A stretch of DNA of 64,000 bases from Desulfatiglandales bacterium (GCA_963666345.1 OY762721.1:1152001-1216000), one strand, 5' to 3'. Counted from the stretch's first letter, positions 116 to 56,559 are shown. Translations and numbers: made by a program. The notes: generated from the sequence alone by a model not told the origin.

Positions 116-1279
116 TTAGTTTGCCGGTGCCCAGTTATCACCCTTAACTTTTACCAGGGTAAAAGATTCCTGCCAATTCAGGCCGATATGATCGTCCGCG
201 GACATGTTAAATGTACCATGTTGGCCGATAAAGTTTCTGGTATTTTCAACTTCGTTTCGGATACCTTCCTTGTCGCAGCCAACGGCCTTTATAGCCTTTA
301 CCACAAGCATGAGGGCATCCCATGCGTGTCCGCTGAAGGTGGCTATCGGCTCATTATATTTGGCCTCATAATCTGTAACAAACTTCATACAAACATCTTT
401 TTGCTGTGATTCCGGGAGTAGCGTAGCGATATTGCAAGGGCCGAGAGGGCAATGAACACCTTCAGCTGCGCCTGCTGCCAGTTCTATATTCTTGAGATTG
501 CCAAAGGCCTGGCTTCGATAAAGAGGGATTGAAGACATACCGAGATCTTGCCAGTTTCTCATCAAGACTACCGAGCTGGGGCCAATCCCCCAGTTACAAA
601 TTGCCTTAGCTCCTTTTGACTTGATTTTAGTCAATTGCGCTGTTATATCTTGATCTTTCGGCCCATAAGTCTCGTCTGCTACAATTTCCATTCCATATTT
701 GGGGGCTAATCGGAGCAGCTCTTGTCTGCCACTCTTACCAAATCCTGATGTAAGGGTTATGACAGCGATTTTATTTATACCTCGCTTTTTAAGATGTGAG
801 TAGTTGGCTTCCACACCCATTGTGTCGCTCTGAGGAGTCTTGAAGACCCATTTACGTATTTTTTTCGTCTTATCGTTGTAAACAATTTTATAACTGGCGG
901 CACAGGTCACAAGGGGTGTTTTAAGTCTTTTTGCTTCATCAACAATCGCAAGCGAAGTTCCGCTCAATGAAGGCCCTATTACCGCACAGACCTTGTCCTG
1001 CGTAACCAGTTTTCTAAAGAAAAGTCTTGTCTTGGTAGAATCGCCCTCAGTGTCGTAGAGAATTACTTCCAACTTTTTCCCATTGATGCCGCCCGATGTG
1101 TTGATTTGGTCAACCAATAAATTAACTGTTTTCTTTTCAGGATCACCAATAAATGATGCGCGTCCGGTTACAGAAAAAAGTGCCCCAACTTTGTATGAAT
1201 CGCCACTGAAAGCCAAGGTGGGGAGGATAAAGGATAATGAAATAAAGGTGCCTAATACAATAAATAAATGCTTTTTCAT
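116..1279 (-). CDS. ABC transporter substrate-binding protein, LivK/LivJ (type I periplasmic binding fold) family
   Basis: Signal peptide; motifs KVGALFSVTG, INTSGGINGKKLEVILYD, AVIGP, WDAL, GTFNMS. Confidence 0.9.
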   Translation of the reverse strand: MKKHLFIVLGTFISLSFILPTLAFSGDSYKVGALFSVTGRASFIGDPEKKTVNLLVDQINTSGGINGKKLEVILYDTEGDSTKTRLFFRKLVTQDKVCAVIGPSLSGTSLAIVDEAKRLKTPLVTCAASYKIVYNDKTKKIRKWVFKTPQSDTMGVEANYSHLKKRGINKIAVITLTSGFGKSGRQELLRLAPKYGMEIVADETYGPKDQDITAQLTKIKSKGAKAICNWGIGPSSVVLMRNWQDLGMSSIPLYRSQAFGNLKNIELAAGAAEGVHCPLGPCNIATLLPESQQKDVCMKFVTDYEAKYNEPIATFSGHAWDALMLVVKAIKAVGCDKEGIRNEVENTRNFIGQHGTFNMSADDHIGLNWQESFTLVKVKGDNWAPAN

Positions 1280-2010: not shown

Positions 2011-2323
2011 CCGGCTGCCGGGGGAATTATATCTTAAAGATGCTGGTCAGGAGTTCGGATAGTTTGTTAGATAGCGGTGACTCTTTCTTCCTGCCTTCTG
2101 CTTTGATAATGTAACGAATGTCCTTAAAATGCATGTACTTCCAAATAACCTGAGGCTTTACAAAATAAGTTTTTCAATTATAGGGCATAAATTATCTTTT
2201 ACTTCATGACAATCGATTGCAAGTTTCTAATCGGATGAAAATATTATAAGGAAAGTTCTATTAGAGATGAGTTTCTTTCCATTCCTGTTCGCTATTATGC
2301 TAAAAGGCTTTTTGTTATTTTTT

Positions 2324-2339
2324 AGCAATATCTGTGCCG
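2324..2339 (-). promoter_or_regulatory. Sigma-54 (-24/-12) promoter facing the ABC transporter
   Basis: Reverse complement CGGCAC-AGATA-TTGCT with correct GG/GC spacing; identical to the site at 5022. Confidence 0.8.
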
Positions 2340-2532
2340 TATGGCCCATACCATTTTTAATAAAGGATTAAGGCTATTGTATTCAATAGCATAAGAACTC
2401 AAAGGGAGGGGGGTGGACATAGAAAAATATGGATAGAAATGGGAAGCTCAAAACTGCAATAAGTCAACACCCTGGCGGCCAAATTTAGGGGAGAATAAAA
2501 ATAAATTAATATTATCAACGTGATAACTGGAC

Positions 2533-2547: not shown

Positions 2548-4287
2548 TCATAATGGCATTTCTGCCGTTTTTAGCTTTCTGTAAATTGTTGCAGGGTCCA
2601 TCTTGAGGAATTTGGCAGCCTGCTTTACGCCACCATGTTTTTTAATTGCCGTTTTTAGCAGCGTTATCTCAAACTGTCTGACGGCATTCTTGAAGGAGCC
2701 CGCTTGCTGGATAGGATAATTGAGGAAGTCCTGTCTAAGCTCTGAGGGTAAGTCCTCCATGATGATTTCATCATGTGGGGTAACCAAAACGAGTCTTTCA
2801 ATTAAATTGATCAGTTCTCTGACATTTCCGGGCCATTGAAAACCTATTAGATAATCGATTACTTCTCGAGAAAAAAAGGCATTTTTATCATATTTGAGAT
2901 TGGTCTTTTCGAGAAAGAAATTGATCATATGAAGAATATCGTCCGGTCTTTCCCTAAGAGGTGGGATAAAAATGGGAATGACGTTTATGCGAAAATAGAG
3001 ATCCTTCCTGAAAGTTCCCTTTTCCACCATAGCTTTTAGATCACGGTTGGTAATAACGATGAGCCGAACGTCAACCTTCTTGGGCGTAACACTTCCAATC
3101 CTTACGATCTCAAGGTCCTGAATCGTCCTTAAAATCTTGACCTGAAGGTTTTGAGGCATCTCTCCTATCTCATCCAGGATTAGGGTTCCTCCTTCGGCAG
3201 CTTCGAAAAGGCCTTGTTTGCCCTTTACATCGGCACCGGTAAAGGCACCATGCTCGTAGCCAAAAAGCTCCGACTCCAGAAGATTCTCAGGTATGGCCCC
3301 ACAGTTTATTTTGAGCAGGGGACTGCTGTTGCGCGTTGAGTGCCTGTGAATATAGTTGGCAATAACCTCTTTGCCTACTCCTGTCTCGCCCGTTATGAGC
3401 ACAGGGGCATCCACCTGAGCAACACGCCCGGCCAGTTCAAAGGCTTGCCTGATTGCCTTGGATTCAGCTACAATCTGGGCCTTTTCAAAGTGGTGCGTCT
3501 TAAGCCTTTCTATCTTTTCATGGTATTGACTGTAAGGCCTTTTAGATTCAATGTTTTTACTTGATAGCCGCCTGATATCGCTTAGTTCCCTGACGTTACT
3601 GACAACCATGGTGATATCGCCGTTGTCATCAAATATCGGAGTTGCAGTGACAAGGGTCTCTTTTCCAGTGAACCATCTTTTCTGTAGCGTGAGTGTTCGC
3701 TTTTCCTTGAGTACCATTTTGGTTGCTGACCGGTTTGAAAAATACCCCTCCGTTTCCAGTTCAGCGACATTCTGTCCCAGGACCTCTCTGGCCGAAACTC
3801 CAGTTATTTTTTCCCAGGAGGGATTTACGCGTATTATGTTGCCTTCGCCGTCGGTGATAAAAAAGCCGTCGTAGGATGAATCAATAATCGCAACCATCTC
3901 TTCAATCATGTGGCGGCAGTTTTCACATTCAAGGAGGTTTTCTTCAACGCCTGAGACATCCTGAATTAGAATCATAACTCTGATAACCGTATCTTTGTCT
4001 ATGATAGGGATCTGATTGACAACAATAGTACGGTCATCCCATTCGACCCTCTTTTCTATCTCATGTTCGGCTCCAATCAGGATATCCTGGAAGTCCTTCC
4101 ATGCCTCAGGGATGATGTCGGAAATATGCTTCCTTTCCAGTTCATCGGTTGAAAGTTTCAGTATCTTGATAGCTTCAGGATTAAAAAAGGTAATCAGGCC
4201 CTGGGGGTCAGTTATAATGATGCCCTTGGAGGGTAATTCAAGCATCTTCTTATTCGTTTCTTGTTCACCCTGCAATATACGATTCAT
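2548..4287 (-). CDS. Sigma-54-dependent transcriptional activator (2x PAS, AAA+, Fis HTH)
   Basis: GETGVGKE Walker [28 protein letters not shown]-terminal HTH. Confidence 0.95.
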   Translation of the reverse strand: MNRILQGEQETNKKMLELPSKGIIITDPQGLITFFNPEAIKILKLSTDELERKHISDIIPEAWKDFQDILIGAEHEIEKRVEWDDRTIVVNQIPIIDKDTVIRVMILIQDVSGVEENLLECENCRHMIEEMVAIIDSSYDGFFITDGEGNIIRVNPSWEKITGVSAREVLGQNVAELETEGYFSNRSATKMVLKEKRTLTLQKRWFTGKETLVTATPIFDDNGDITMVVSNVRELSDIRRLSSKNIESKRPYSQYHEKIERLKTHHFEKAQIVAESKAIRQAFELAGRVAQVDAPVLITGETGVGKEVIANYIHRHSTRNSSPLLKINCGAIPENLLESELFGYEHGAFTGADVKGKQGLFEAAEGGTLILDEIGEMPQNLQVKILRTIQDLEIVRIGSVTPKKVDVRLIVITNRDLKAMVEKGTFRKDLYFRINVIPIFIPPLRERPDDILHMINFFLEKTNLKYDKNAFFSREVIDYLIGFQWPGNVRELINLIERLVLVTPHDEIIMEDLPSELRQDFLNYPIQQAGSFKNAVRQFEITLLKTAIKKHGGVKQAAKFLKMDPATIYRKLKTAEMPL

Positions 4288-4816
4288 TGATTCTCTTTCA
4301 TGACTTATCGATGTTCTGAATGATGTTTACTTCAAAATCGTCTTTATATCCGGAGCAAGCCAAAGAAATCTTACCCCATATATCAAAGCAAAACCAGCAT
4401 TAACACCCCTAATATATAATGATATCTAACATATCATGCCATGATATTCAATGATGTTCGTTGAGTTTATAAAACACCGAAACCGGCAATAAGTGCCTTA
4501 ACTTAGCAAAATGGTATGATTCGCCCAATCCACCGGCGAATGATAACCATGTAAGTCTATTCTGCGAAAGGACAACAGAGCAAAACGAGTCCCAAAACAA
4601 AAGATCCAAATGCAACAATGCTTTCAACTAAAACTCATATTCGATTCCCTATGAATATCCGATTTAGCTTGTCTTTGAGGCTATTTTCTTATTAATTTAA
4701 TAATAAATATAAAAGGATGTAAGCTATCATTATTGGATTAAATGTATATGCAGGATCGAAGTATAGGCATATTGCTATTTCCATAAACTTGAAAACTGCA
4801 AGTTCGCGATAATAAG

Positions 4817-4830
4817 CTGCAAAAATGCAA
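4817..4830. promoter_or_regulatory. Candidate enhancer (UAS) for the PAS-bEBP
   Basis: CTGCAAAAATGCAA about 190 bp upstream of the right sigma-54 site. Confidence 0.4.
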
Positions 4831-5021
4831 ATGCTTTATCCTATTGATAACATTAAAAAAAATAATTTTATTTATAAAATTAGAGCTGGATAAGATGATA
4901 TTATGCGGCTTTACCTCTCTGCTTTTCTCCAATAAAGTTCAGTGCATATTTCCCCCTTTTGTACCCTTATCCTGTCGAATACAATAGACTTAATCCTTTA
5001 TTAAAGCTGGCAGGGGTCATA

Positions 5022-5037
5022 CGGCACAGATATTGCT
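5022..5037 (+). promoter_or_regulatory. Sigma-54 (-24/-12) promoter for the methyltransferase cluster
   Basis: CGGCAC-AGATA-TTGCT. Confidence 0.85.
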
Positions 5038-5303
5038 GAAGAAAAGGCTGATTCCTCGGTGGAATAGTCGTTTATGTTTTTTTGTCTGCATTGGTAAATG
5101 GGGAACTGAAGGGATTTGGTGAAAAGCTGAAAAAGGCCTTTGGAACAAGTTATAAAATCCCAACTTACTCGATTGTGAATCAGTGAGGGGACTTTTATTA
5201 ATGCATATCTAAAGTGGATGTTTCTCCGTATGTCTATTTGGGAGAAGGTGATAAAAGTTTTTCCAGGCACTTCATTTATAATTTTTATGGCCCCTATTCA
5301 ACC

Positions 5304-5516: not shown

Positions 5517-6899
5517 ATGAAGATTTCGTTGCCGGAAATTTTATTGAGGTCAAAAGAGGGCCAGTTTATGGAGGAAAAGCAATTTGACCTGGCCCTCTTT
5601 AAAAAGACCCAGGAGCTCCAAAAAAAATACCACATCAAATATGATCCGGGAAAACCCCTGGACACCGAAGGGGACTTGGCAGACAGGATCTATCAGGCTG
5701 GAGTTGAACTTTTTACGGAACTTGGGACTTTTTGTGTCACCACCAATAGGGTTATCAATGTATCGGAAAAAGAGCTTTTTGCCGCCATTGATACTTGCCC
5801 AGAGGAAATTGAATTAGGCCAGGGAAATGAGCGGGTCAAGATGGGCCATCGAGATGTAGAAGGCGATCAGCAGGTCGTTGTGGTAGCAGGTATTCAAACC
5901 GCACCCTACAGCGACGAAGCTCATATGTTCATGATTTACAAGGGATGTGCCATGGATCGCTGTGTGGACGGGATATGGGGAGGCATCCTTTTGAAGAACG
6001 ACGGTAAGTACGATGTCATAGCTGGCACACCATCCGAGATCTATCAGTACAGAAAAACGGTGGAAATACTGAGAAAGGCCGTTACTGCGGCGGGGCGACC
6101 AGGGCTGATTACCATCAGCAATGCGCCGACCAGTGGAGCCACCATTGCCATGTTTGATGAAGAAATGGGACTTCGACGCACCGATTACATGGAAAGCACT
6201 GGCATGTCGGAGTTGAAGGTGGCCTATGATGACCTGAATCGATCGGCCTTTGCCCTTGCCCACGGGGTAAGCATCCACGGCACCCACAGCTCCACCATCG
6301 GAGGATTTTCAGGCAACCCTGAAGGCGCAACAATAACGGCTGTGGCGGGAAGCCTTCAACTTATAGCAATACATTTTGCAGATAGCTTTCGATGCGGTAC
6401 TGTAGATTCAAGAATCAAGGCCCGTCAGAGTAGAAGTCAGTTATGGTCGGCAGGTTCAGCCATTCAGGCGCTTAGCAGGAACACCAAGCTTATCGTTGAC
6501 GGCAGTATTGGAGACCACCCGGCAGCAGGTCCCGGCACCAAACAATATTTTTATGAGAGCGCGGCAGGCCATATTGTATCGACGGTAATGGGAGGTCATT
6601 CCACAGAGGGAACCCGTAAATTCACAGTGGGAAACACCTGTAATTACGGGACGCCTCTTGAGTCCCGATGGATGGGGGAAGTTTGCAAGGCGGCCGTAGG
6701 TATGGATCGAAAAACGGCGGAGCAAATCGTCTTGTATCTTTTAAGCAAATACGAAGACCATCTCATGGATGCTCCTGAAGGAGAGACTTTCGATGGCCTT
6801 TATGACCCGAAGCATATGTTACCCAACCAACATTATCAGACCCTGTATGACGAAGTCAAAAAGGAGCTTAAGGATATTGGAATCAATTTTATCGATTAA
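5517..6899 (+). CDS. MtmB-family corrinoid methyltransferase homolog 1, no pyrrolysine
   Basis: Colinear with monomethylamine methyltransferase MtmB motifs (AGRPG, ELK, GGFSG, AGPGT, LESRWMGEV, APEGETF..LYD); Ile200 (ATC, 6114-6116) at the Pyl-equivalent site. Confidence 0.85.
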   Translation: MKISLPEILLRSKEGQFMEEKQFDLALFKKTQELQKKYHIKYDPGKPLDTEGDLADRIYQAGVELFTELGTFCVTTNRVINVSEKELFAAIDTCPEEIELGQGNERVKMGHRDVEGDQQVVVVAGIQTAPYSDEAHMFMIYKGCAMDRCVDGIWGGILLKNDGKYDVIAGTPSEIYQYRKTVEILRKAVTAAGRPGLITISNAPTSGATIAMFDEEMGLRRTDYMESTGMSELKVAYDDLNRSAFALAHGVSIHGTHSSTIGGFSGNPEGATITAVAGSLQLIAIHFADSFRCGTVDSRIKARQSRSQLWSAGSAIQALSRNTKLIVDGSIGDHPAAGPGTKQYFYESAAGHIVSTVMGGHSTEGTRKFTVGNTCNYGTPLESRWMGEVCKAAVGMDRKTAEQIVLYLLSKYEDHLMDAPEGETFDGLYDPKHMLPNQHYQTLYDEVKKELKDIGINFID

Positions 6900-6911
6900 T
6901 GGAGAAAAAAT

Positions 6912-7574
6912 ATGGAAATAGAAAATTTGGCTGAAGAACACAAACAAATCTTGGATTCACTTATGCGAGCCATAGTCGACATAGATGACGAAAAAGCCAC
7001 GACCATCGCCGAAAAAATCATTGAACAAGAAATCAATCCTAGCCTTGCCATCAAATATTCCATCTCGAATGCTGCTATAGGGATTGGAGAAAAATTTGAT
7101 TCTGGAGAATACTTCCTTGCCCATCTTGTCATGGCTGGAGATTTGATGGCTTCGGTGGGCAAAATCCTGGAGCAAAATATCCCTATAGAAACACGCGAAA
7201 GAAAAAAAGTAGCCGTCATCGGTGCAGTGCAGGGCGATATGCATACTGTAGGAAAGAACCTGGTGTCTACCATGTTACGTTCCGGCGGATTTGAGGTCTA
7301 TGATATGGGAGTCGACGTGCCCAGCATGGCATTTATAGAAAAGGCAAAAGAACTTGATGCAGACCTGATTGCCCTCTCTTCTCTGCTAACCACAACAATG
7401 CCCTATCAGAAAGAGGTAATTGAGGATCTGGCAGCAATGGGTCTCAGAGACCGTTTCAAGGTTATGGTGGGTGGGGGTCCTGTAACAAGAAGCTATGCTG
7501 AAAAAATTGGGGCTGATGGGTATGGTAAAGACGCCATCGAAGCACTAGAAGAAGCGAAGAAAATTTGCGCATAA
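6912..7574 (+). CDS. Methyltransferase cognate corrinoid (B12-binding) protein, MtmC/MttC-like
   Basis: DMHTVGKNLV (DxHxxG), SSLLTTTM, VMVGGGPVT..A..IGADGY, N-terminal cap domain. Confidence 0.92.
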   Translation: MEIENLAEEHKQILDSLMRAIVDIDDEKATTIAEKIIEQEINPSLAIKYSISNAAIGIGEKFDSGEYFLAHLVMAGDLMASVGKILEQNIPIETRERKKVAVIGAVQGDMHTVGKNLVSTMLRSGGFEVYDMGVDVPSMAFIEKAKELDADLIALSSLLTTTMPYQKEVIEDLAAMGLRDRFKVMVGGGPVTRSYAEKIGADGYGKDAIEALEEAKKICA

Positions 7575-7599
7575 CAATATAATATGAAAGGCTTATGAG

Positions 7600-8967
7600 A
7601 TGATATCTTTGTATGAAATTGCCGAAAGAACTCAAACTGGTGAAAAAGTGGAAGAAAAGAAATGGGATATGGAATTCTACCAAAACATCAGTGAGCTTCT
7701 CAAGAAATACCAAATACAGACCCCTGACGACCACTGCTATATTAATATGGATGATGAATTGCCTGAAAGAGCCTTTGAGGCAGCTATCGAATTTTTGGAA
7801 AAAACTGGGATCTACTGCATTACTACCAGAAGACGGATAAAGCTCACTAGAGAGGAAATCCTAACTGCAATTAACGAAGCTCCTACTGAAATTTTGATGG
7901 GCGAAGGAAGGGACCGAAGGGTCTGGAAACAACGCAGCATAGAAGAAAAGGAGAAGGTTAATGTCTGTCCAGGCCATCATACTCCTTTTACGGAAGATTT
8001 GGCAGGACTTGTGGTGAGTAATTTTGCCCAGATCCCCAGGACCGACTTTATTGAAGGATTCAATTTTTCCGAAGTCGATGGTCGAGAAATAATGGGGCCA
8101 CCCATGGAAGTATACGCTTCCAGGCGCCAGGTGGGATGGATGAGAGAAGGCATTCGTAAGGCTGGAAGGCCTGGCTTGGCCATTGTCTATTATCCTATTA
8201 ATACGAGAGCGGAAGATCTTATAGGTGCAATAGACCCCGATCATGGGATCAGAAGAACAGACGGCGTCTTGCTTTCCCTTTTGCCGGATTTGAAAATGGA
8301 ACAAGATATGCTATCAGCAGCCATTGTCTACGAGGAATATGGATCCTTTAAACTGAGCGGCAGTTTTGCCATCGCAGGTGGATTCTGTGGCGGTATGGAA
8401 GGCGCAATCATCGAAGGGATCGCTAAGCCTATTGCAGCCATGATTGCCTATCGGGACTATATCAATTACACCGGCGTAGAACATGTTCATATGCTTAACG
8501 CAAGAGTAATTCTGCTTCCATGGATCAATTGGGCTCGTTCCGTTGTGAATCAGGCCTTAAACCGTTTCACTCACACACTGTGTATGCGCTGGATCATACC
8601 AACCTCGGGGCCGGGTACCGAATTGAATCTTCTTGAAGGTGCAATGCAATCCATTGAGGCCCCCATAAATGGTATGAATCTCTATGCTCCAAGGCATTGC
8701 CGAACGACGGTTAACCATGGACAAACACCACTGGAAGCTGAATGGATGATTCAGGTTAGCGATGCGGTAATTGAACAGGGATTCGACAGACGAGCAGCTG
8801 ATGAAATTTTGTCGAAGATTGCCGATGTTATTAAGGATGAAAAGCCGGCAGAAGGCTTTGATATAACTCAGTGTTATGATCTTGTTCACCACAGACCACT
8901 GCCAGAATACCAAAACGTCTACATGAAAGTAAAAACGGAACTTGCAAATATGGGTCTGAAAATTTAA
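7600..8967 (+). CDS. MtmB-family corrinoid methyltransferase homolog 2, no pyrrolysine
   Basis: AGRPG, GGFCGG, SGPGTE, TPLEAEWM, QCYD motifs; Val196 (GTC, 8185-8187) at the Pyl-equivalent site. Confidence 0.85.
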   Translation: MISLYEIAERTQTGEKVEEKKWDMEFYQNISELLKKYQIQTPDDHCYINMDDELPERAFEAAIEFLEKTGIYCITTRRRIKLTREEILTAINEAPTEILMGEGRDRRVWKQRSIEEKEKVNVCPGHHTPFTEDLAGLVVSNFAQIPRTDFIEGFNFSEVDGREIMGPPMEVYASRRQVGWMREGIRKAGRPGLAIVYYPINTRAEDLIGAIDPDHGIRRTDGVLLSLLPDLKMEQDMLSAAIVYEEYGSFKLSGSFAIAGGFCGGMEGAIIEGIAKPIAAMIAYRDYINYTGVEHVHMLNARVILLPWINWARSVVNQALNRFTHTLCMRWIIPTSGPGTELNLLEGAMQSIEAPINGMNLYAPRHCRTTVNHGQTPLEAEWMIQVSDAVIEQGFDRRAADEILSKIADVIKDEKPAEGFDITQCYDLVHHRPLPEYQNVYMKVKTELANMGLKI

Positions 8968-9950: not shown

Positions 9951-10790
9951 CTACCCCTTATTGGCAATGACCGCAAACTCGCTTGATTTCGGATCATACG
10001 GTGTTCCAGCCAGGTCAGAATAATATCCTTTGATGGAAAGACTTGCCTCCTTAAATTCCCTCTCTAGATCTTCGGGTGCAAAATACTGTAACCAGTTGTA
10101 CACCTGCTTAGTGCGCTCAGACTCAATAATTGTGTATTTGTCCAGCACTACCTTCTCATCATCGTATTTGAATGTATTTAGAAAGCCATAATACTTGTTT
10201 GGTGACCAAAATCCGTTGAGCTGGTTCACCTCATATGTCGCGGCCTCTTCCCTTTGTTCGAATGCCGATAGGGAATAAATGTCAATAAGTACCGAACCGC
10301 CCGGTTTTAGGATCTTATGGAATTTGCGCAGAAGCCCTTTCCTTTGTTTTGGGCTAAGGGCGCAGAAATCACACATGATCATCAGGACCAGATTGAACCG
10401 GTCTTCTGTTTCAAACTCAAAGTAATTCTGATTCACGTAGCTGATGTTTAATTGCTCGCGGGTTGCGATATCCTTTGCGTACTCGATGGACCTCCCCGAA
10501 AAATCGATACCTGTCACATTTGCTCCGTGTTTCGCCAAACGTGCTGCGTATAATCCAGGACCACACCCAAAATCGGCTATCTTGGAATCTATGCCGATGT
10601 TGAACTGAGTTGCGATCCATTCCACCGATCGATTGATGAATTCCGCGTTTCGTGAAGAAACGTCGATCGCCTCGTCGAGGTGAAACAAGAGCATCTGTTT
10701 TGATGTATGTTCATCGGTCCATAGATCGCTTGCGGTGTAAAATTGAAACGGTTCCGGCCGTTCGTTAATCCCCTCTAATTCATCAAACAT
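9951..10790 (-). CDS. Class I SAM-dependent methyltransferase (cassette-borne)
   Basis: IADFGCGPG motif I, VTGIDFS, LKPGG. Confidence 0.9.
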   Translation of the reverse strand: MFDELEGINERPEPFQFYTASDLWTDEHTSKQMLLFHLDEAIDVSSRNAEFINRSVEWIATQFNIGIDSKIADFGCGPGLYAARLAKHGANVTGIDFSGRSIEYAKDIATREQLNISYVNQNYFEFETEDRFNLVLMIMCDFCALSPKQRKGLLRKFHKILKPGGSVLIDIYSLSAFEQREEAATYEVNQLNGFWSPNKYYGFLNTFKYDDEKVVLDKYTIIESERTKQVYNWLQYFAPEDLEREFKEASLSIKGYYSDLAGTPYDPKSSEFAVIANKG

Positions 10791-17173: not shown

Positions 17174-17839
17174 TCACAGGGCCATAAAAAAGCGGTCAAA
17201 CCCTGCAACAAAGGCTCTTCCATCCTTTTTAAGAAGCACACCTTCCTCTCCTGTAACCTGAACAATGGGGAAAACATCCCCGTTCCATTCCTGCCTGAAC
17301 CTATGAAGGATAGATGAAAAACCGCGTGATTTTGCCTTGCACTCAACTGCAAGGATCGGTCGATTTTTGAGTGTCAAAACAAAATCGATCTCCTTTTTGT
17401 CATAGGTCCTGACATAGTAGAGCCCCACCTTCGGCCACCCTGCATCATAAAGTGAGGTAACGAAACGGAGCAATTCAGTTCCTACCATATTTTCAAACCG
17501 GCTGCCTTCCCTGCCCGCATAAGTCCAGTCAAGAAAATACCATTTCTTTTCCTTCTTCATGGCCCTGTTTATCTTCCCTGAAACAGGGGGAATCGGCCAA
17601 GCGAGATAGAGGCTCTGCAGTGCTGACAGCCATGCCTGGACCGTGCTGTGACTTGATTCAATGTCTTCAGCAAGGGAACGCAGCGAAAGGGGCGATCCTA
17701 TCCTTTCCGGAAGAAGCTCCACGAGGTGAGAGACACGGTCAAGTTCTCTGATCCCTGAAAGATCTCTCAGGTCTTCCCGCACAAGAAGGCTCAAATAATC
17801 CCTGTGCCAGCAATTGACCAGTAAAAGCATATACGCCAT
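17174..17839 (-). pseudogene. C-terminal fragment of an AAA+ ATPase / DUF4143 protein
   Basis: GSPLSL.SLAED, KKWYFLD, FEN.V..EL, EIDFV, AVECK; Walker A region missing. Confidence 0.7.
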
Positions 17840-17889
17840 TGATCATTAATGCGAATGCCGTATTGACCTGAACGATCACCTTTGCCATG

Positions 17890-17956
17890 CCCGGCACACA
17901 AGGTTAAACTGAGAGGCGCGTTTTTTTAGCGGTCGGCTCAAGTGATTGGTTCGCTT
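17890..17956 (-). repeat. Degenerate attC-like site after the RelE-type toxin
   Basis: Minus strand AAGCGAAC-caatcac-TTGAGCCGACCGC...GCGCCTCTCAGTTT; the AAGCGAAC core is complementary to GTTCGCTT at the cassette start. Confidence 0.6.
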
Positions 17957-18236
17957 ATGTGCTTTTGACATACGTCTTCAGATCGCGATAATAATTCTCA
18001 TGGGGGCCAATCATTATCAATTCGAGGTCTTCCGCCACGAATCTGTAAGCCAAAAGATACTGAGTCGTCTTAATATTATACTTATGGACGTAGATCCCTC
18101 GCAGATCACCTTTCTTTTCGGTACCAATAGCCGGATTTTCAGCAATGAGCTTGACTTGTTCATCAAGTTGCAACTTCTGTGTCTTGCTGAACTTCTTGAC
18201 TTTTCGCGCAAACGATCTTGATTGAAGAATCTTCAT
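17955..18236 (-). CDS. RelE/ParE-family toxin
   Basis: F.RKVKK, NP.IG..KKGDL, LLAY, IGPHENYYRDLK. Confidence 0.85.
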   Translation of the reverse strand: MKILQSRSFARKVKKFSKTQKLQLDEQVKLIAENPAIGTEKKGDLRGIYVHKYNIKTTQYLLAYRFVAEDLELIMIGPHENYYRDLKTYVKST

Positions 18237-18242
18237 AGGGGA

Positions 18243-18461
18243 CTACCCGAATTTGTATTCTGAGGATTCATCCAGTTCCAGCTCAGCGACTCCAATAAGG
18301 ATTTCTTTAATCAGGCCATACGTGAGGTCGGGATTATCCTCAGCGCATTTGCCGATTCTGGCCCAATGTTCAATTTGGCCGGTGATAGACCGTTTGTCGA
18401 TTTTGCTATAGATTTTAGCCTCTTTGACCAGATCGCCAGAGACTCTTACAGCGGTTGCCAT
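18243..18461 (-). CDS. ParD-like antitoxin
   Basis: MATAVRVS..LV.EAK......RSITGQIEHWARIGK.AE.NPDL. Confidence 0.85.
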   Translation of the reverse strand: MATAVRVSGDLVKEAKIYSKIDKRSITGQIEHWARIGKCAEDNPDLTYGLIKEILIGVAELELDESSEYKFG

Positions 18462-18545
18462 GTCAGCACCTCCGATTAATTTTATTGCAATATACTACAA
18501 TTCATAGCAATTTGCAACATTTGTAAGTGGGATTGTCAATATTGA

Positions 18546-18649
18546 AGCGAACGCCCCGCCTGAGCCGCGGCCCATTAAAATTTCAACCCTTCACAGTTTT
18601 AACGAAAAACCGCAATTTTTCCGCCGTCTGCTCCAGGCGGATGTTAGCT
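18546..18649 (-). repeat. attC site
   Basis: Minus strand AGCTAAC-atc-CGCCTGGAGC...GCTCAGGCG-gggc-GTTCGCT; upstream ORF stop codon lies within the first core. Confidence 0.8.
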
Positions 18650-19054
18650 GCCGGGAACAAACCCAGCAGGGGGAACACTCTTGTTTCTCACTGAATGTAT
18701 GACCTTGTCGTTTGCTAAACGAACCCTGGCAAGGGAATAAGCATTTTCTCTGATTTTCTCTGGAAGATGATTAAGCGGGATCCATGTTTCCCACGATTCT
18801 TCTGGCTTGAGTCGCCGGGGAAGTGGCCGAGCAGGATTAAGTATATGAATGTCTGTACCGGCGACAACCCAAACATGGGTCACCTCAACTTCACGTTGAG
18901 GAGATGCATTCCTAACGTTGATGAAATAACACTCTGGGCCATTGGGTAAAAGAAGAGCACTATGGCAACGGACTTTTACACTTTTGCAAAGACCAATTGC
19001 ACTAAATATCCACCCGAGAACTGTTTGAACCATCTCTAAAATCACCTCAATCAT
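18644..19054 (-). CDS. Hypothetical gene-cassette protein with N-terminal hydrophobic segment
   Basis: 136-aa ORF bounded by GTTATCTGCC and GGCAGCTAAC. Confidence 0.65.
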   Translation of the reverse strand: MIEVILEMVQTVLGWIFSAIGLCKSVKVRCHSALLLPNGPECYFINVRNASPQREVEVTHVWVVAGTDIHILNPARPLPRRLKPEESWETWIPLNHLPEKIRENAYSLARVRLANDKVIHSVRNKSVPPAGFVPGS

Positions 19055-19058
19055 AGGC

Positions 19059-19122
19059 AGATAACGATAAAGATTTTATTGAGAGTGATGCTTTGCAGCA
19101 TTCTCAATAAAATTGTGTTGGA
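19059..19122 (-). repeat. Degenerate attC-like hairpin
   Basis: Minus strand GTCCAAC...TTTTATTGAGA..GC/GC..TCTCAATAAAA...GTTATCT. Confidence 0.4.
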
Positions 19123-19467
19123 CTGAGCCGATTCGCCCCATGCTATGGGGATTGTATCGGTTCTCTTATAAAGGATATCTGATAAATCTTTGTCTCTTTG
19201 ATAGATTGAACAGCGTTTTTAATGCAGTGGAAGTTCATACTACCATCTTCAACGGTCTTTAATGACCTGGGAAAAGGTGTTTTTAATGCTTAAGCACACT
19301 CTTTTCCCATAGGCCTTTCCAGGTCTCTTATGTTTGTGATCCAGATTTTTCTAATAGCCAGGTTGTTCACGGGGAAGCCCTCGCAGGCAATGGATTTATA
19401 ACTTTCCTAAAATGCATCCTTCCTTTGCCGCATTGGGGGCATACCATCACATCAATGCCTGTCAGCC

Positions 19468-19860
19468 TTAAGAGTAAATCTTGCCACCTTTCTCTCCCTT
19501 TAACGGAGCGACCTCTTTTAAAATGGTTTCCGGCGTCCCTTTGCTGGTCAGGCTGTAGACGACAGGTATTCCCACAGCCCTCGCCTTTGTGACAAGTGTC
19601 TTGATTTTAGGAACAGAAGCTATACATCGAGGCCTTCTCTCTGAATTACAGGTTCGCTTTTCAATGTCCAAAACCAAAAGGGCCGTAACCTTGGAGTCCA
19701 CTTTGACCGGTTTGATCGCAGGGGCCTCCGGCGCTTTGACGCTGGTCCATTCGTCAATAATCGTTTCATCTGCCCGAACAGGGCCTGTAAAAAACAAAAG
19801 AACGCCGAATAAAACGGTTCCCTTCATAATCATTTGTTTCACATTTATTTTCATAGTCAT
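19468..19860 (-). pseudogene. Secreted isochorismatase-family (cysteine hydrolase) protein, C-terminally truncated
   Basis: Signal peptide, TALLVLD, L..KAR..GIPVVYS; ends before the catalytic C-terminal half. Confidence 0.65.
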
Positions 19861-20256
19861 CTCTCTTAGTCCTCCATTTTTTTAACGCTGTAATCAGACG
19901 GGATTGATTCAGGCTTGAATCATTATTAAGCCCGGGCAAACCCGGCAAGACTGATGATATCTTAATAGCTGGTTCAAAATAATGAGTTCCAATATATCGG
20001 GAACTTAGATTTCAGTTAAATGTAAGACATTGTCGACCGCCCGTACCTAATCTTGTGCATTGAAAATTTTGAAATATTTATCCAATACCATTTTCATATC
20101 GCAACTCTCATTGAGCCTGCCATCTCCATAAGATACCACCATTTTTAAAGAAGGGTCCGGAAAGTAGCTTTTCCAAAAACTGATTTAAAGGTTGGTATCA
20201 TTTTCGATATAATCTTATCCGGATATGTTCGGTCTTAATTCACGGTTTTCTTTTAT

Positions 20257-21605
20257 GGTTCATCCGGCAAATGCCGGGGTAATAATATTGGTTGGTGAAT
20301 TTACTGTAAAAAGCCATAGAAAAATCGTCGCCAATGGGTTATCTCGTTTCTGAGCTACGACACTACAGACACGAGAGGAGACCGACAATGGCGACGACAA
20401 GCTTTTTGTATCACACAATGGGCCTTAAAGGCTACCGACACATTCGTACCGAGTATCGTTATGGTGTTGTCTTTTACCATGTAAAACTGAGGAACACCAA
20501 ACGCAGGTGCAGAAGATGCGGTGCCAGGTGGCGTTATCTCAGAAAAGCAGGAAAATTTACCAGGGTTTTTCATGCCTTGCCCATTGGCAGAAAGCCACAG
20601 AAGATAGTGCTTCATGGGCATGAACAATACTGCCGGCATTGTGGACGTATATTGAGGGAACCCATTAAATTTGCCAGAGGGAAAAAGCGTTCTTTGAGAT
20701 GTTTTGATCGATTTATCGTTGATCTGTGCACTATTGCTACCATCAAGGCAGTGGCTGCGTTCCTTGGGGTTGGATGGGATCTGGTTAAAGGCATCTTCAA
20801 GGAAGATCTTAAAAAGCGCTTGAGCAGACGAAAGCTGAGAAGAGTCCGCTACATTGCGGTTGATGAGTTTGCTCTTCGAAAGGGGCATCATTACATGACT
20901 GTGGTCATGGATCTTGAAACCGGACAGATCCTTTATGCTGAGAAGGGCAAGGATGCACAGGCCTTGATCCCTTTTCTCAAAACGCTGCGCAGGAGAAGAA
21001 TAAAACTCATGGCAGTGGCAATGGACATGTCCCCGGCCTACATGAATGCTGTTAAGGAAGTATTCCCCAATGTTGATATCGTACACGATCCTTACCATGT
21101 GGTGGTTAATGTCAACAAGGCTATTGATGAAACCAGGAAAAATATTTACCGCACCATGACAGGCAAGCAGCGTGGCATCATTAAAGGATCGAGGTTTTTG
21201 CTGCTCAGACCGCTAGAGGCTTTAAGTGAGGCCTCACTTTCAAAGCTTTCTGCTATTATGGAAATCAATGAGCCGCTGTATAAAGCATATATACTGAAAG
21301 AAGAACTTCGCTGGTTCTGGAATCTACCGAATGCATGGTTAGGTGAGCAATTCTTGGATAACTGGATCAAGGAAGCATACGAAACAGGTATCAAAAGCTT
21401 CATAAAGCTGGCTGATTCACTGCTGCGACACAAACCAGGTTTGTTATCATATTTTGCTCACCGTATCTCCACTGGTCCACTTGAGGGCCTTAACAACAAA
21501 ATCAAAGTGCTCAAACGACAAGCATATGGTTTCAGAGACAACGAGTATTTTAAACTACGTCTCTACTTCTTACATAATGACACCCCGGCATTTGCCGGAT
21601 GAACC
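20257..21605 (+). mobile_element. Intact ISL3-family insertion sequence
   Basis: 24-bp perfect TIR GGTTCATCCGGCAAATGCCGGGGT; 8-bp duplication TCTTTTAT at 20249-20256 and 21606-21613. Confidence 0.95.
20388..21602 (+). CDS. ISL3-family transposase
   Basis: CxxC zinc finger, IAVDEFA..KGH.Y.T, AMDMS..Y, HD.YHV, EG.NNKIK..KR.AYGFR; GAGGAG RBS before ATG 20388. Confidence 0.95.
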   Translation: MATTSFLYHTMGLKGYRHIRTEYRYGVVFYHVKLRNTKRRCRRCGARWRYLRKAGKFTRVFHALPIGRKPQKIVLHGHEQYCRHCGRILREPIKFARGKKRSLRCFDRFIVDLCTIATIKAVAAFLGVGWDLVKGIFKEDLKKRLSRRKLRRVRYIAVDEFALRKGHHYMTVVMDLETGQILYAEKGKDAQALIPFLKTLRRRRIKLMAVAMDMSPAYMNAVKEVFPNVDIVHDPYHVVVNVNKAIDETRKNIYRTMTGKQRGIIKGSRFLLLRPLEALSEASLSKLSAIMEINEPLYKAYILKEELRWFWNLPNAWLGEQFLDNWIKEAYETGIKSFIKLADSLLRHKPGLLSYFAHRISTGPLEGLNNKIKVLKRQAYGFRDNEYFKLRLYFLHNDTPAFAG

Positions 21606-21677: not shown

Positions 21678-22373
21678 ATGAACAAGACTATTTCACTAAT
21701 CACACTTTCAGTATCTCTAATACTCGGTATGACACAACCCATTGAATCTGCCGCACGAACGGAAACAGCCACTATTGCAATGGGCTGATTCTGGGGACCT
21801 GACTCCCGGTTCGGGGGCATAAAAGGCGTCTTAAGCACTGAAGTGGGGTATACGGGAGGTATGACAAGAAACCCCACATACCACAGCATTGGCGACCATA
21901 CAGAGAGCCTTCAAATTCGCTATGACCCTGAAATGATTGACTACGGCTATATCCTTGAGACCTTTCAAAAGAGCCACATAATAACTGATAGATCATTTTC
22001 CAGACAATATCGATCCGCCATATTTTATCATGATGAAACCCAGAGAAGGATTGCCCAAAAAATGCTTGAAAGGGTCGAAAAAGATACCCGCAAAAGGGTG
22101 TACACTCAGATCGAAGCCTTGAAAATATTCTACCCCGCAGAGGATTATCATCAAAAATATGCCTTGAGGAGACATCCCGAGATCATTCGTCTGCTGGTGA
22201 ACCATTATAAAAACGAGAAGGAGTTTATGGAATCCACCATCGCAGCGAGGCTAAACGGTTATCTGGGCGGACATGGCAATTTAGGAATCGTGAGAGAAGA
22301 AATTTTGAAACTTGACATTGAAGACGATAAGAAAACCAAATTAATCGGATTACTGGAAAAGGTCATCCGTTGA
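21678..22373 (+). CDS. msrA: Selenocysteine-containing peptide methionine sulfoxide reductase A with signal peptide
   Basis: In-frame TGA at 21786-21788 in G-U-FWG (GCFWG motif); VGYTGG, NPTY, DHTE, QYRSAIF, FYPAEDYHQKY; hairpin CTCCC-GGTTC-GGGGG just 3' of the TGA. Confidence 0.88.
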
Positions 22374-56543: not shown

Positions 56544-56559
56544 TGCAAGTGTAGTGCCA
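56544..56559 (-). promoter_or_regulatory. Sigma-54 promoter upstream of hisH-hisF-carA-carB-purF
   Basis: Reverse complement TGGCAC-TACAC-TTGCA, consensus match. Confidence 0.85.

Follow-up and report, generated by a model that had tools for sequence, protein, structure and literature searches.

A 64,000-nucleotide stretch of the genome of a Desulfatiglandales bacterium (GCA_963666345.1, OY762721.1:1152001-1216000; hereafter the window) was found to contain a three-gene cassette in which two divergent, pyrrolysine-free members of the MtmB methyltransferase family flank a single corrinoid protein. The genes are referred to here as MtmBa, CoP (corrinoid protein) and MtmBb, and the loci examined for comparison carry L-numbers. 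Judged by its sequence, the cassette probably encodes an uncharacterised anaerobic (oxygen-free) demethylation system, and it is a widely spread, paired-paralogue variant of a known theme in which a methylamine methyltransferase lacking pyrrolysine (Pyl) is partnered with a corrinoid protein. We lean, if only slightly, towards a cassette controlled by sigma-54 and an enhancer-binding protein (EBP), whose products would be two separately acting, MT1-type (carrier-loading) enzymes of MtmB fold with one shared carrier, and whose substrate would be a carboxylate-bearing N-methyl amine. The central observation had been made in a preliminary description of this DNA and is confirmed here; its system-level reading largely holds, and its interpretation is supported in part.

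All three genes lie on the plus strand, MtmBa at 5517-6899 (460 amino acids, aa), CoP at 6912-7574 (220 aa) and MtmBb at 7600-8967 (455 aa), with intergenic gaps of 12 nt and then 25 nt. The open reading frames (ORFs) fall exactly where they had been placed, and none of the three contains an internal stop. A Pfam search assigned MtmBa (263.8 bits, E 3.7e-78) and MtmBb (216.6 bits, E 7.7e-64) to the MtmB family PF05369, for which the cut-off is 25 bits, and the matches span positions 5-450 and 2-450 of the 450-position profile, i.e. membership is full-length. Both proteins also align end to end with PDB 1L2Q, MtmB1 of Methanosarcina barkeri (E 7e-51 for MtmBa and 7e-42 for MtmBb); no NCBIfam model matches either of them. 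The strong divergence of the paralogues that had been noted is borne out by an identity of 31% (144/469). A profile search of the whole 4.16-Mb genome returned these two genes as the only PF05369 matches, and their adjacency can therefore not be put down to two abundant genes having met by chance. The protein between them contains B12-binding (1e-27) and B12-binding_2 (1e-10) domains, the former of Rossmann type and the latter forming the N-terminal cap, and a DMHTVG motif at residues 109-114, in keeping with the single DxHxxG (base-off/His-on) corrinoid protein originally described. Among NCBIfam models it scores best against MtbC (193 bits, cut-off 350), followed by TIGR02370 'pyl_corrinoid' (182 bits, cut-off 215), with MtgC also among the best matches but below its cut-off; by sequence similarity it resembles MtbC/MtgC and is no named equivalog. 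Database searches at E <= 1e-10 recovered 332 relatives of MtmBa and 689 of MtmBb; the best 120 of the former are all at least 69% identical to the window's MtmBa, the best 120 of the latter at least 76% identical to its MtmBb, and such relatives are publicly annotated as 'monomethylamine:corrinoid methyltransferase'.

In the alignment to 1L2Q, the pyrrolysine (X of GRPGMGVXG) falls opposite the second I of GRPGLITI in MtmBa and the V of GRPGLAIV in MtmBb. With the GRPG motif starting at residue 193 in the former and 189 in the latter, these positions are Ile200 and Val196, the very residues that had been proposed. Across a 13-sequence alignment the column is occupied by I, M or V in MtmBa-type proteins and by V in MtmBb-type proteins, and over the non-Pyl family as a whole it varies greatly, whilst the residues that are invariant across the MtmB family are kept in both MtmBa and MtmBb. 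The genome, a single 4.16-Mb contig that is 96.7% complete, contains no PylD or PylS match above cut-off (TIGR03911, best 23.9 bits against 150; TIGR02367, best 33.6 bits against 178), and no obvious Pyl-split fragments were seen among the top 150 family representatives. Neither UAG-encoded pyrrolysine nor pylS/pylD is present, and the two proteins are thus not MtmB in the strict, pyrrolysine-dependent sense.

AlphaFold2 models were built from orthologue alignments and their folds compared by Foldseek. For both proteins the best match was 1NTH, with a TM score of 0.89 (E 1e-37) for the MtmBa model (pLDDT 89.6) and of 0.81 (E 6e-30) for the MtmBb model (pLDDT 79.9); the next fold, MttB, reached a TM score of only ~0.5 in each case, so both are predicted to adopt the MtmB TIM barrel. 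The preliminary description had named failure to fall within the MtmB family as one outcome that would overturn it; the PF05369 profile and the predicted fold agree in placing both proteins there. Taken with the lack of pyrrolysine, this bears out the description of an uncharacterised, candidate corrinoid-dependent methyl-transfer unit encoded by two MtmB-family members together with CoP.

Four characterised or detected systems invite comparison. MtmB1/MtmC of Methanosarcina barkeri (1L2Q, 1NTH) shares the fold, the GRPG motif and a corrinoid partner with the cassette, at 26-27% identity when structurally aligned, but carries a catalytic pyrrolysine where Ile or Val stands here, in a genome without pyl genes. 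The glycine betaine-type systems MtgB/MtgC and other non-Pyl members of the MttB superfamily (Desulfitobacterium hafniense, Eubacterium limosum) follow a like logic, in that a non-Pyl relative with a corrinoid protein feeds tetrahydrofolate in an anaerobe; they belong, however, to another family (PF06253), matched by Foldseek at a TM score of only ~0.5. A third system is MtqB/MtqC. According to a 2026 report (PMC13044021), MtqB of Methanococcoides methylutens Q3c (ACT9XH_RS04775), like the proteins described here a pyrrolysine-free MtmB homologue encoded beside an MtbC-like corrinoid protein, demethylates tetramethylammonium and choline, which makes outdated the earlier statement that no characterised substrate was known for non-Pyl MtmB homologues. 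In that methanogen there is one MtqB, its gene is placed after the corrinoid gene, and coenzyme M receives the methyl group; in the cassette two paralogues flank the carrier in a sulfate-reducer-type bacterium, beside an importer with a solute-binding protein. Lastly, Ga0180325_111810 of 'Ca. Formimonas warabiya' DCMF is a bacterial non-Pyl MtmB-superfamily protein of unassigned substrate that showed the largest abundance rise in dichloromethane-grown cells (PMC9768040). It differs from the cassette in being a single gene, ~30% identical to other members, with no pairing described (PMC9768040). Paper supplements aside, full-text searches of the literature showed non-Pyl MtmB to be discussed only in these last two reports (PMC13044021, PMC9768040), and no description of the MtmBa-CoP-MtmBb cassette was found.

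Scans of genome and metagenome contigs gave 13 and 46 loci, of which 51 were kept (L004-L014 and L033-L072); L031 and L032 were excluded as 100% identical to the window and hence from the same organism, and L015, L016 and L073-L076 as members of other subfamilies (~30% identical). Near-duplicate loci (L007/L008, L055/L056 and L037-L039) inflate the independence of the resulting counts, in which an MtmBa orthologue at >=55% identity was present at 48/51 loci, a corrinoid gene followed it at 37 of the 41 with at least 750 nt downstream, and, where at least 2300 nt were available (n=21), an intact MtmBb was found at 18 loci, a 60-aa fragment of it at one (L044) and no MtmBb at two (L010, L061). 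The survey of gene order suggested in the preliminary description thus found the arrangement largely kept. Median identity to the window was highest for MtmBb (78%), followed by MtmBa (71%) and the corrinoid protein (64%), with orthologues 60-84% identical. Among titled records the trio was seen in Deltaproteobacteria, Syntrophaceae, Nitrospirota and Dehalococcoidales, and in a Bathyarchaeia metagenome-assembled genome (MAG) it was permuted to CoP-MtmBb-MtmBa (48-57% identity). A Desulfobacteraceae locus ends within the corrinoid gene, a Spirochaetales record has MtmBa alone, and a Chloroflexota contig ends shortly after a more distant MtmBa-type gene. Distribution closer to home is patchy: within the same phylum an MtmB-family match (E <= 1e-20) was found in 12/401 sampled genomes, the window's own included, and the orthologue pair in just one other of the 401, with no family match in 6 same-family and 7 same-order genomes. 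Pairwise divergence of MtmBa and of MtmBb was correlated over 13 loci (r = 0.96, reached by 0/2000 permutations), the pattern that movement of the whole cassette together would produce. The two clades are not sisters in a 155-member family tree, in which both lie inside one 43-tip clade (support 0.94), and the pairing is therefore old. By these comparisons, MtmBa-CoP-MtmBb is an apparently portable three-gene cassette of several bacterial phyla and of archaea.

The window also carries an ISL3-family transposase (20334-21602), a DUF4143 fragment (17174-17839) and a short isochorismatase-like fragment (19468-19860), all within 17174-21602. Such seemingly mobile or decayed DNA ~8-12 kb downstream of the cassette fits its patchy distribution.

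Upstream of the cassette lies a 92-nt promoter module (4952-5043, plus strand), 479 nt before the MtmBa start codon, with a sigma-54-type -24/-12 element, CGGCACAGATATTGCT, at 5022-5037, for which a transcription start near 5049 is predicted. A second copy of the module (2318-2409, minus strand; element at 2339-2324) is found 1044 nt before a livK-type gene, which encodes a Liv-type solute-binding protein (Peripla_BP_6, 116-1279, minus strand; Pfam 1.3e-47) and is continued left of the window by LivHMGF-type genes. The two copies form an inverted repeat of 82% identity in which the 16-mer is identical and each element is oriented towards its own operon, mtmB or liv; blastn and exact searches found the module at just these two places in the 4.16-Mb genome. 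The element, CGGCAC-N5-TTGCT, has one mismatch to the sigma-54 -24/-12 consensus. Matches to the -24/-12 pattern as such are no more frequent in the window than chance predicts (22 observed, 28 expected), and the argument for co-regulation therefore rests on the shared 92-nt module. Divergent from the mtmB operon is a gene for a predicted sigma-54 EBP (2548-4287, minus strand) with PAS, AAA+ sigma-54 interaction (Sigma54_activat, 2.9e-67) and HTH_8 domains by Pfam, whose best NCBIfam match is PrdR (409 bits, cut-off 795), and rpoN is present in the genome at 2,929,382. A predicted EBP, a -24/-12 element and rpoN, the components of a sigma-54-dependent regulon, are thus all in place, and the liv and mtmB operons are plausibly co-regulated through the identical element.

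Among the other loci, L035 and L048 have partial, contig-cut EBP genes next to the cassette, at 40% and 53% identity over the matched stretches, and in L048 a perfect TGGCAC-N5-TTGCA stands before TctC, between the homologous EBP and a TctCBA-MtmBa-CoP-MtmBb array. Among 12 upstream regions of related loci, L048 was the only one with a sigma-54 element. In the window the sole perfect TGGCAC-N5-TTGCA is at 56544-56559 (minus strand). The leaders of both operons are long (479 nt for mtmB, 1044 nt for liv); neither these nor the 4288-5040 spacer contained convincing ORFs or similarity to neighbour proteins of related loci. No RNA element was found in the window by Rfam at gathering thresholds, scanning the 479-nt leader by E-value yielded nothing beyond an rpfG match at chance level (17 bits, E 0.37), and no terminator pattern was found downstream of MtmBb.

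To the left of the binding protein, LivH/M-type permease and LivG/F-type ATPase genes are followed by a second EBP, an isochorismatase-family gene, glnK-amtB, glnD and another amt. The liv operon thus adjoins a nitrogen-regulation cluster (L003, genome 1,138,001-1,153,000) with two Amt, a GlnK-type PII, GlnD and the isochorismatase-family hydrolase, and it is possible that nitrogen would be acquired from the demethylated product. The two EBPs that flank the liv operon (window 2548-4287, minus strand; genome 1,146,895-1,148,649, i.e. L003:8895-10649, minus strand) are 92% identical as proteins and 94.4% identical over 1725 nt of DNA. Residues 127-579 are nearly identical and the N-terminal ~125, the first sensor region, have diverged, a pattern resembling that of a recent duplication or gene conversion from which the two emerged with distinct input domains.

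The genes that would complete a methyl-transfer pathway are not encoded with the cassette. Whole-genome searches with URO-D, Pterin_bind and RACo (the MtrH family, PF02007, was not searched) gave no matches inside the 64-kb window, so that the earlier statement that no second-step methyltransferase (MT2) or RamA-type activator is present stands for the window; it does not extend to the genome, where candidates occur 85-105 kb upstream and elsewhere. RACo/RamA genes are located at 1,048,060 and 3,497,704, Pterin_bind genes at 1,052,253, 2,143,848 and 2,549,793, a full-length URO-D/MtaA-like gene at 1,052,981 with several corrinoid-protein genes nearby (1,058-1,070 kb), and the acetyl-CoA synthase gene CdhC at 2,146,952. 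Two MttB-family genes are also present, each with its own corrinoid gene. These accessory genes are candidates to serve MtmBa-CoP-MtmBb. Converging on the cassette is a SAM-dependent methyltransferase gene (9951-10790, minus strand; best NCBIfam CpaM, 59.5 bits, cut-off 180), which among the loci searched was found beside the cassette only in L032, the contig 100% identical to the window.

The cassette travels with a variety of transport systems. Liv-type ABC genes lie beside it in the window's genome, L040, L042, L043 and L044, TRAP-TAXI genes in L005, L033, L051 and L052, and TTT-type TctCBA genes in L042, L048, L057 and L069; Opp-type ABC (L004, L034), sugar-type ABC (L035, L058), SSF (L007/L008, L046, L047) and MFS (L007, L055/L056) genes are further neighbours, and LysE-type transport genes also recur. 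The regulators are GntR-FCD proteins in 6 loci and sigma-54 EBPs in the window's genome, L035 and L048. Judging by family, most of these transporter and regulator types would handle carboxylates or amino acids. The co-regulated Liv importer of the preliminary description is supported in the window, whose 92-nt module is confined to the two promoters, and the link to Liv genes holds at four further loci, but the cassette is also paired with other transporter types. Likewise its suggested substrate, a methylated amino acid or amide, is reasonable but not the sole option, given the TRAP, TTT, Opp-type, sugar-type ABC, SSF and MFS systems. Neighbours that fit N-methyl amino compounds are aminotransferases of class III (5 loci) and, once, of class I, glutamate dehydrogenase, DHDPS-family proteins accompanied by a racemase of Asp/Glu/hydantoin type, AcnX and isochorismatase-family hydrolases.

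In the account we favour, a small methylated compound would enter the cell, in this organism through the co-regulated Liv-type ABC importer, and MtmBa and MtmBb would each pass a methyl group from their own substrate to Co(I) on the carrier that they share. These substrates would most likely be related methylated forms, e.g. successive demethylation states of one compound, and most likely carboxylate-bearing N-methyl amines, such as N-methylated amino acids or betaine breakdown products, rather than monomethylamine. A methylcorrinoid:tetrahydrofolate methyltransferase encoded elsewhere would take the methyl group off the carrier, a RamA-type activator would re-reduce oxidised cobalt, and the methyl group would enter the Wood-Ljungdahl pathway. 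The family and predicted fold of both proteins, their lack of pyrrolysine, the conserved cassette, the promoter module common to the two operons and the accessory genes of the genome are observed, whereas we infer which way the methyl groups flow, that MtmBa and MtmBb act separately and which class of substrate they use. Several observations weigh against it. At most cassette loci no second-step methyltransferase lies nearby, and the unloading step is for that reason assumed. The MtmBb model is of low confidence at residues 200-270, including the Pyl-equivalent loop. A heteromer, too, would fit the near-obligate pairing of MtmBa with MtmBb and the parallel way in which they diverge. We know of no precedent for secondary or tertiary amine activation in the MtmB fold without pyrrolysine. 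Neighbouring genes vary greatly between loci, and part of the context may be coincidental. Moreover, a further set of neighbours (AFOR in 3 loci, a CoA ligase, UxaA-like in 5 loci, PTE in 4 loci, LarA-like, Amidohydro_2 and an OYE-type reductase) fits methoxylated aromatic or sugar acids equally well, as do the solved structures that match the binding protein best, 3SG0 and 4DQD (E 1e-36), which we take to hold aromatic ligands.

These last points lead to a different substrate, O- or S-methylated, such as a methoxylated aromatic acid of the vanillate, syringate or ferulate type or an O-methylated sugar acid, which we consider unlikely but deserving of weight. Also among the matches of the binding protein is CouP (4JB0), which binds ferulate (PMC3610893). 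The AFOR genes occur in L006, L040 and L042, with an AMP-binding CoA ligase and two SDRs in L040, the OYE-type reductase in L045 and Amidohydro_2 in L044, and the UxaA-like, PTE, LarA-like, GntR-FCD, TRAP, TTT and MFS genes would suit such acids too. However, other families hold the MT1 enzymes known to act as O-demethylases, and the aminotransferases, glutamate dehydrogenase and Liv, Opp-type and LysE-type genes recur beside the cassette as well. An N-methyl donor is favoured because the characterised members of the fold, Pyl-MtmB and MtqB, all act on N-methyl groups (PMC13044021). Far less probable is that MtmBa and MtmBb are ordinary methyltransferases for monomethylamine, or another simple methylamine, used as a nitrogen source. 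The public annotations name this function, it would suit both the sigma-54 control and the presence, a few kb leftwards, of glnK, glnD and a pair of amt genes, and a small monomethylamine demethylation is reported for MtqB (PMC13044021). Against this, the replacement of pyrrolysine by Ile and Val and the absence of pyl genes make monomethylamine an unlikely substrate, the Pyl-equivalent column varies widely in the non-Pyl family, importers of amino-acid or carboxylate type that depend on binding proteins accompany the cassette, and two paralogues at just 31% identity are kept together.

How the two paralogues divide the work is informed by a few exceptional loci. In a Dehalococcoidales-type context, L010 and L061 have the order UxaA-like, class-III aminotransferase, MtmBa, CoP, PTE with no MtmBb, and L009 and L062 have the same surroundings with MtmBb present; MtmBa of L009 and of L061 are 82% identical. 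On another contig, the genome of L010 has three MtmBb-like genes (59, 50 and 49% identical to MtmBb) without MtmBa, in the order TRAP DctPQM, CoP, URO-D-like, MtmB, CoP, MtmB, MtmB, LarA-like, RamA, Pterin_bind, RnfC-like/MTHFR; this compact methylotrophy cluster, in which two URO-D-like genes are counted in all, is L082 (G401:C13:12001-32000). An obligate MtmBa/MtmBb hetero-oligomer, acting as one substrate:corrinoid methyltransferase on one substrate, would account for the intact MtmBb that follows MtmBa and the corrinoid gene at 18/21 testable loci, for the correlated divergence and for the strong conservation of both proteins, and the MtmB of Methanosarcina is itself a homo-oligomer. However, co-inheritance alone predicts correlated divergence, and the occurrence of MtmBa with CoP but without MtmBb in the setting of MtmBb-bearing loci, together with clustered MtmBb-like genes without MtmBa, disfavours an obligate heteromer, which we judge credible but improbable. 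Where the preliminary description had left a heteromer and two enzymes side by side, the evidence thus favours separate enzymes. Rather more doubtful than the heteromer is that the cassette either carries out complete stepwise, pyrrolysine-independent N-demethylation of a tertiary and then a secondary amine, with one paralogue per step (e.g. from dimethylglycine via sarcosine to glycine, or on a pair of the N-methyl-proline type), or forms an MT1/MT2 relay from a single fold. The known betaine methyltransferases stop after the first methyl group, and stepwise demethylation, if true, would close the gap that they leave; among the papers returned by a literature search, none was seen to assign a dimethylglycine or sarcosine function to corrinoid MtmB-type proteins. 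The relay by itself, with MtmBa loading the corrinoid protein and MtmBb unloading it onto an acceptor, so that the cassette would be self-contained, we regard as less likely again. It would agree with the scarcity of URO-D-type genes, which among the annotated neighbours of cassette loci are near the cassette only in L053 and L033, and with the stronger conservation of MtmBb than of MtmBa. It could also draw on C123, H127 and C263, which are invariant, and H126, which is nearly so, across 21 sequences of the MtmBb clade and which MtmBa lacks. By analogy, such Cys/His residues resemble the acceptor-activating metal sites of other corrinoid methyltransferases, and C123, H126/H127 and C263 of MtmBb may form a metal site, as a lead only. 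An MT2 role is, however, known for no member of the MtmB fold, the window's genome has canonical MT2 candidates, and loci with MtmBa only would still require an unloading enzyme. Furthermore, the MtmBb-like genes of the L010 genome adjoin a canonical Pterin_bind methyltransferase, RamA and MTHFR, and their position beside this tetrahydrofolate-side pathway disfavours MtmBb as the unloading enzyme.

Elsewhere in the window, a gene at ~21729-22373 (plus strand) probably encodes a selenoprotein MsrA. Its active site would read GUFWG if the in-frame TGA at 21786-21788 is taken as selenocysteine; the called ORF (21843-22373) begins past this TGA, and the Pfam 'selenoprotein MsrA helical domain' also matches.

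Non-Pyl MtmB homologues form a very large family, with 1584 clusters at 50% identity in a profile search at E <= 0.001 and 399 at E <= 1e-30, of which one member has a demonstrated function, published in 2026. Metagenome surveys commonly take such genes as a sign of monomethylamine use, for instance in Bathyarchaeia (PMC10321748) and floodplain MAGs (PMC11264602), a reading that is probably wrong for the MtmBa/MtmBb subfamily. Highly conserved and phylogenetically widespread, the cassette is a well-defined experimental target, and a ligand common to several of the cassette-linked binding-protein types could reveal the substrate. Its identity would add a new methyl donor to the anaerobic one-carbon metabolism of sediments, peat and the subsurface.

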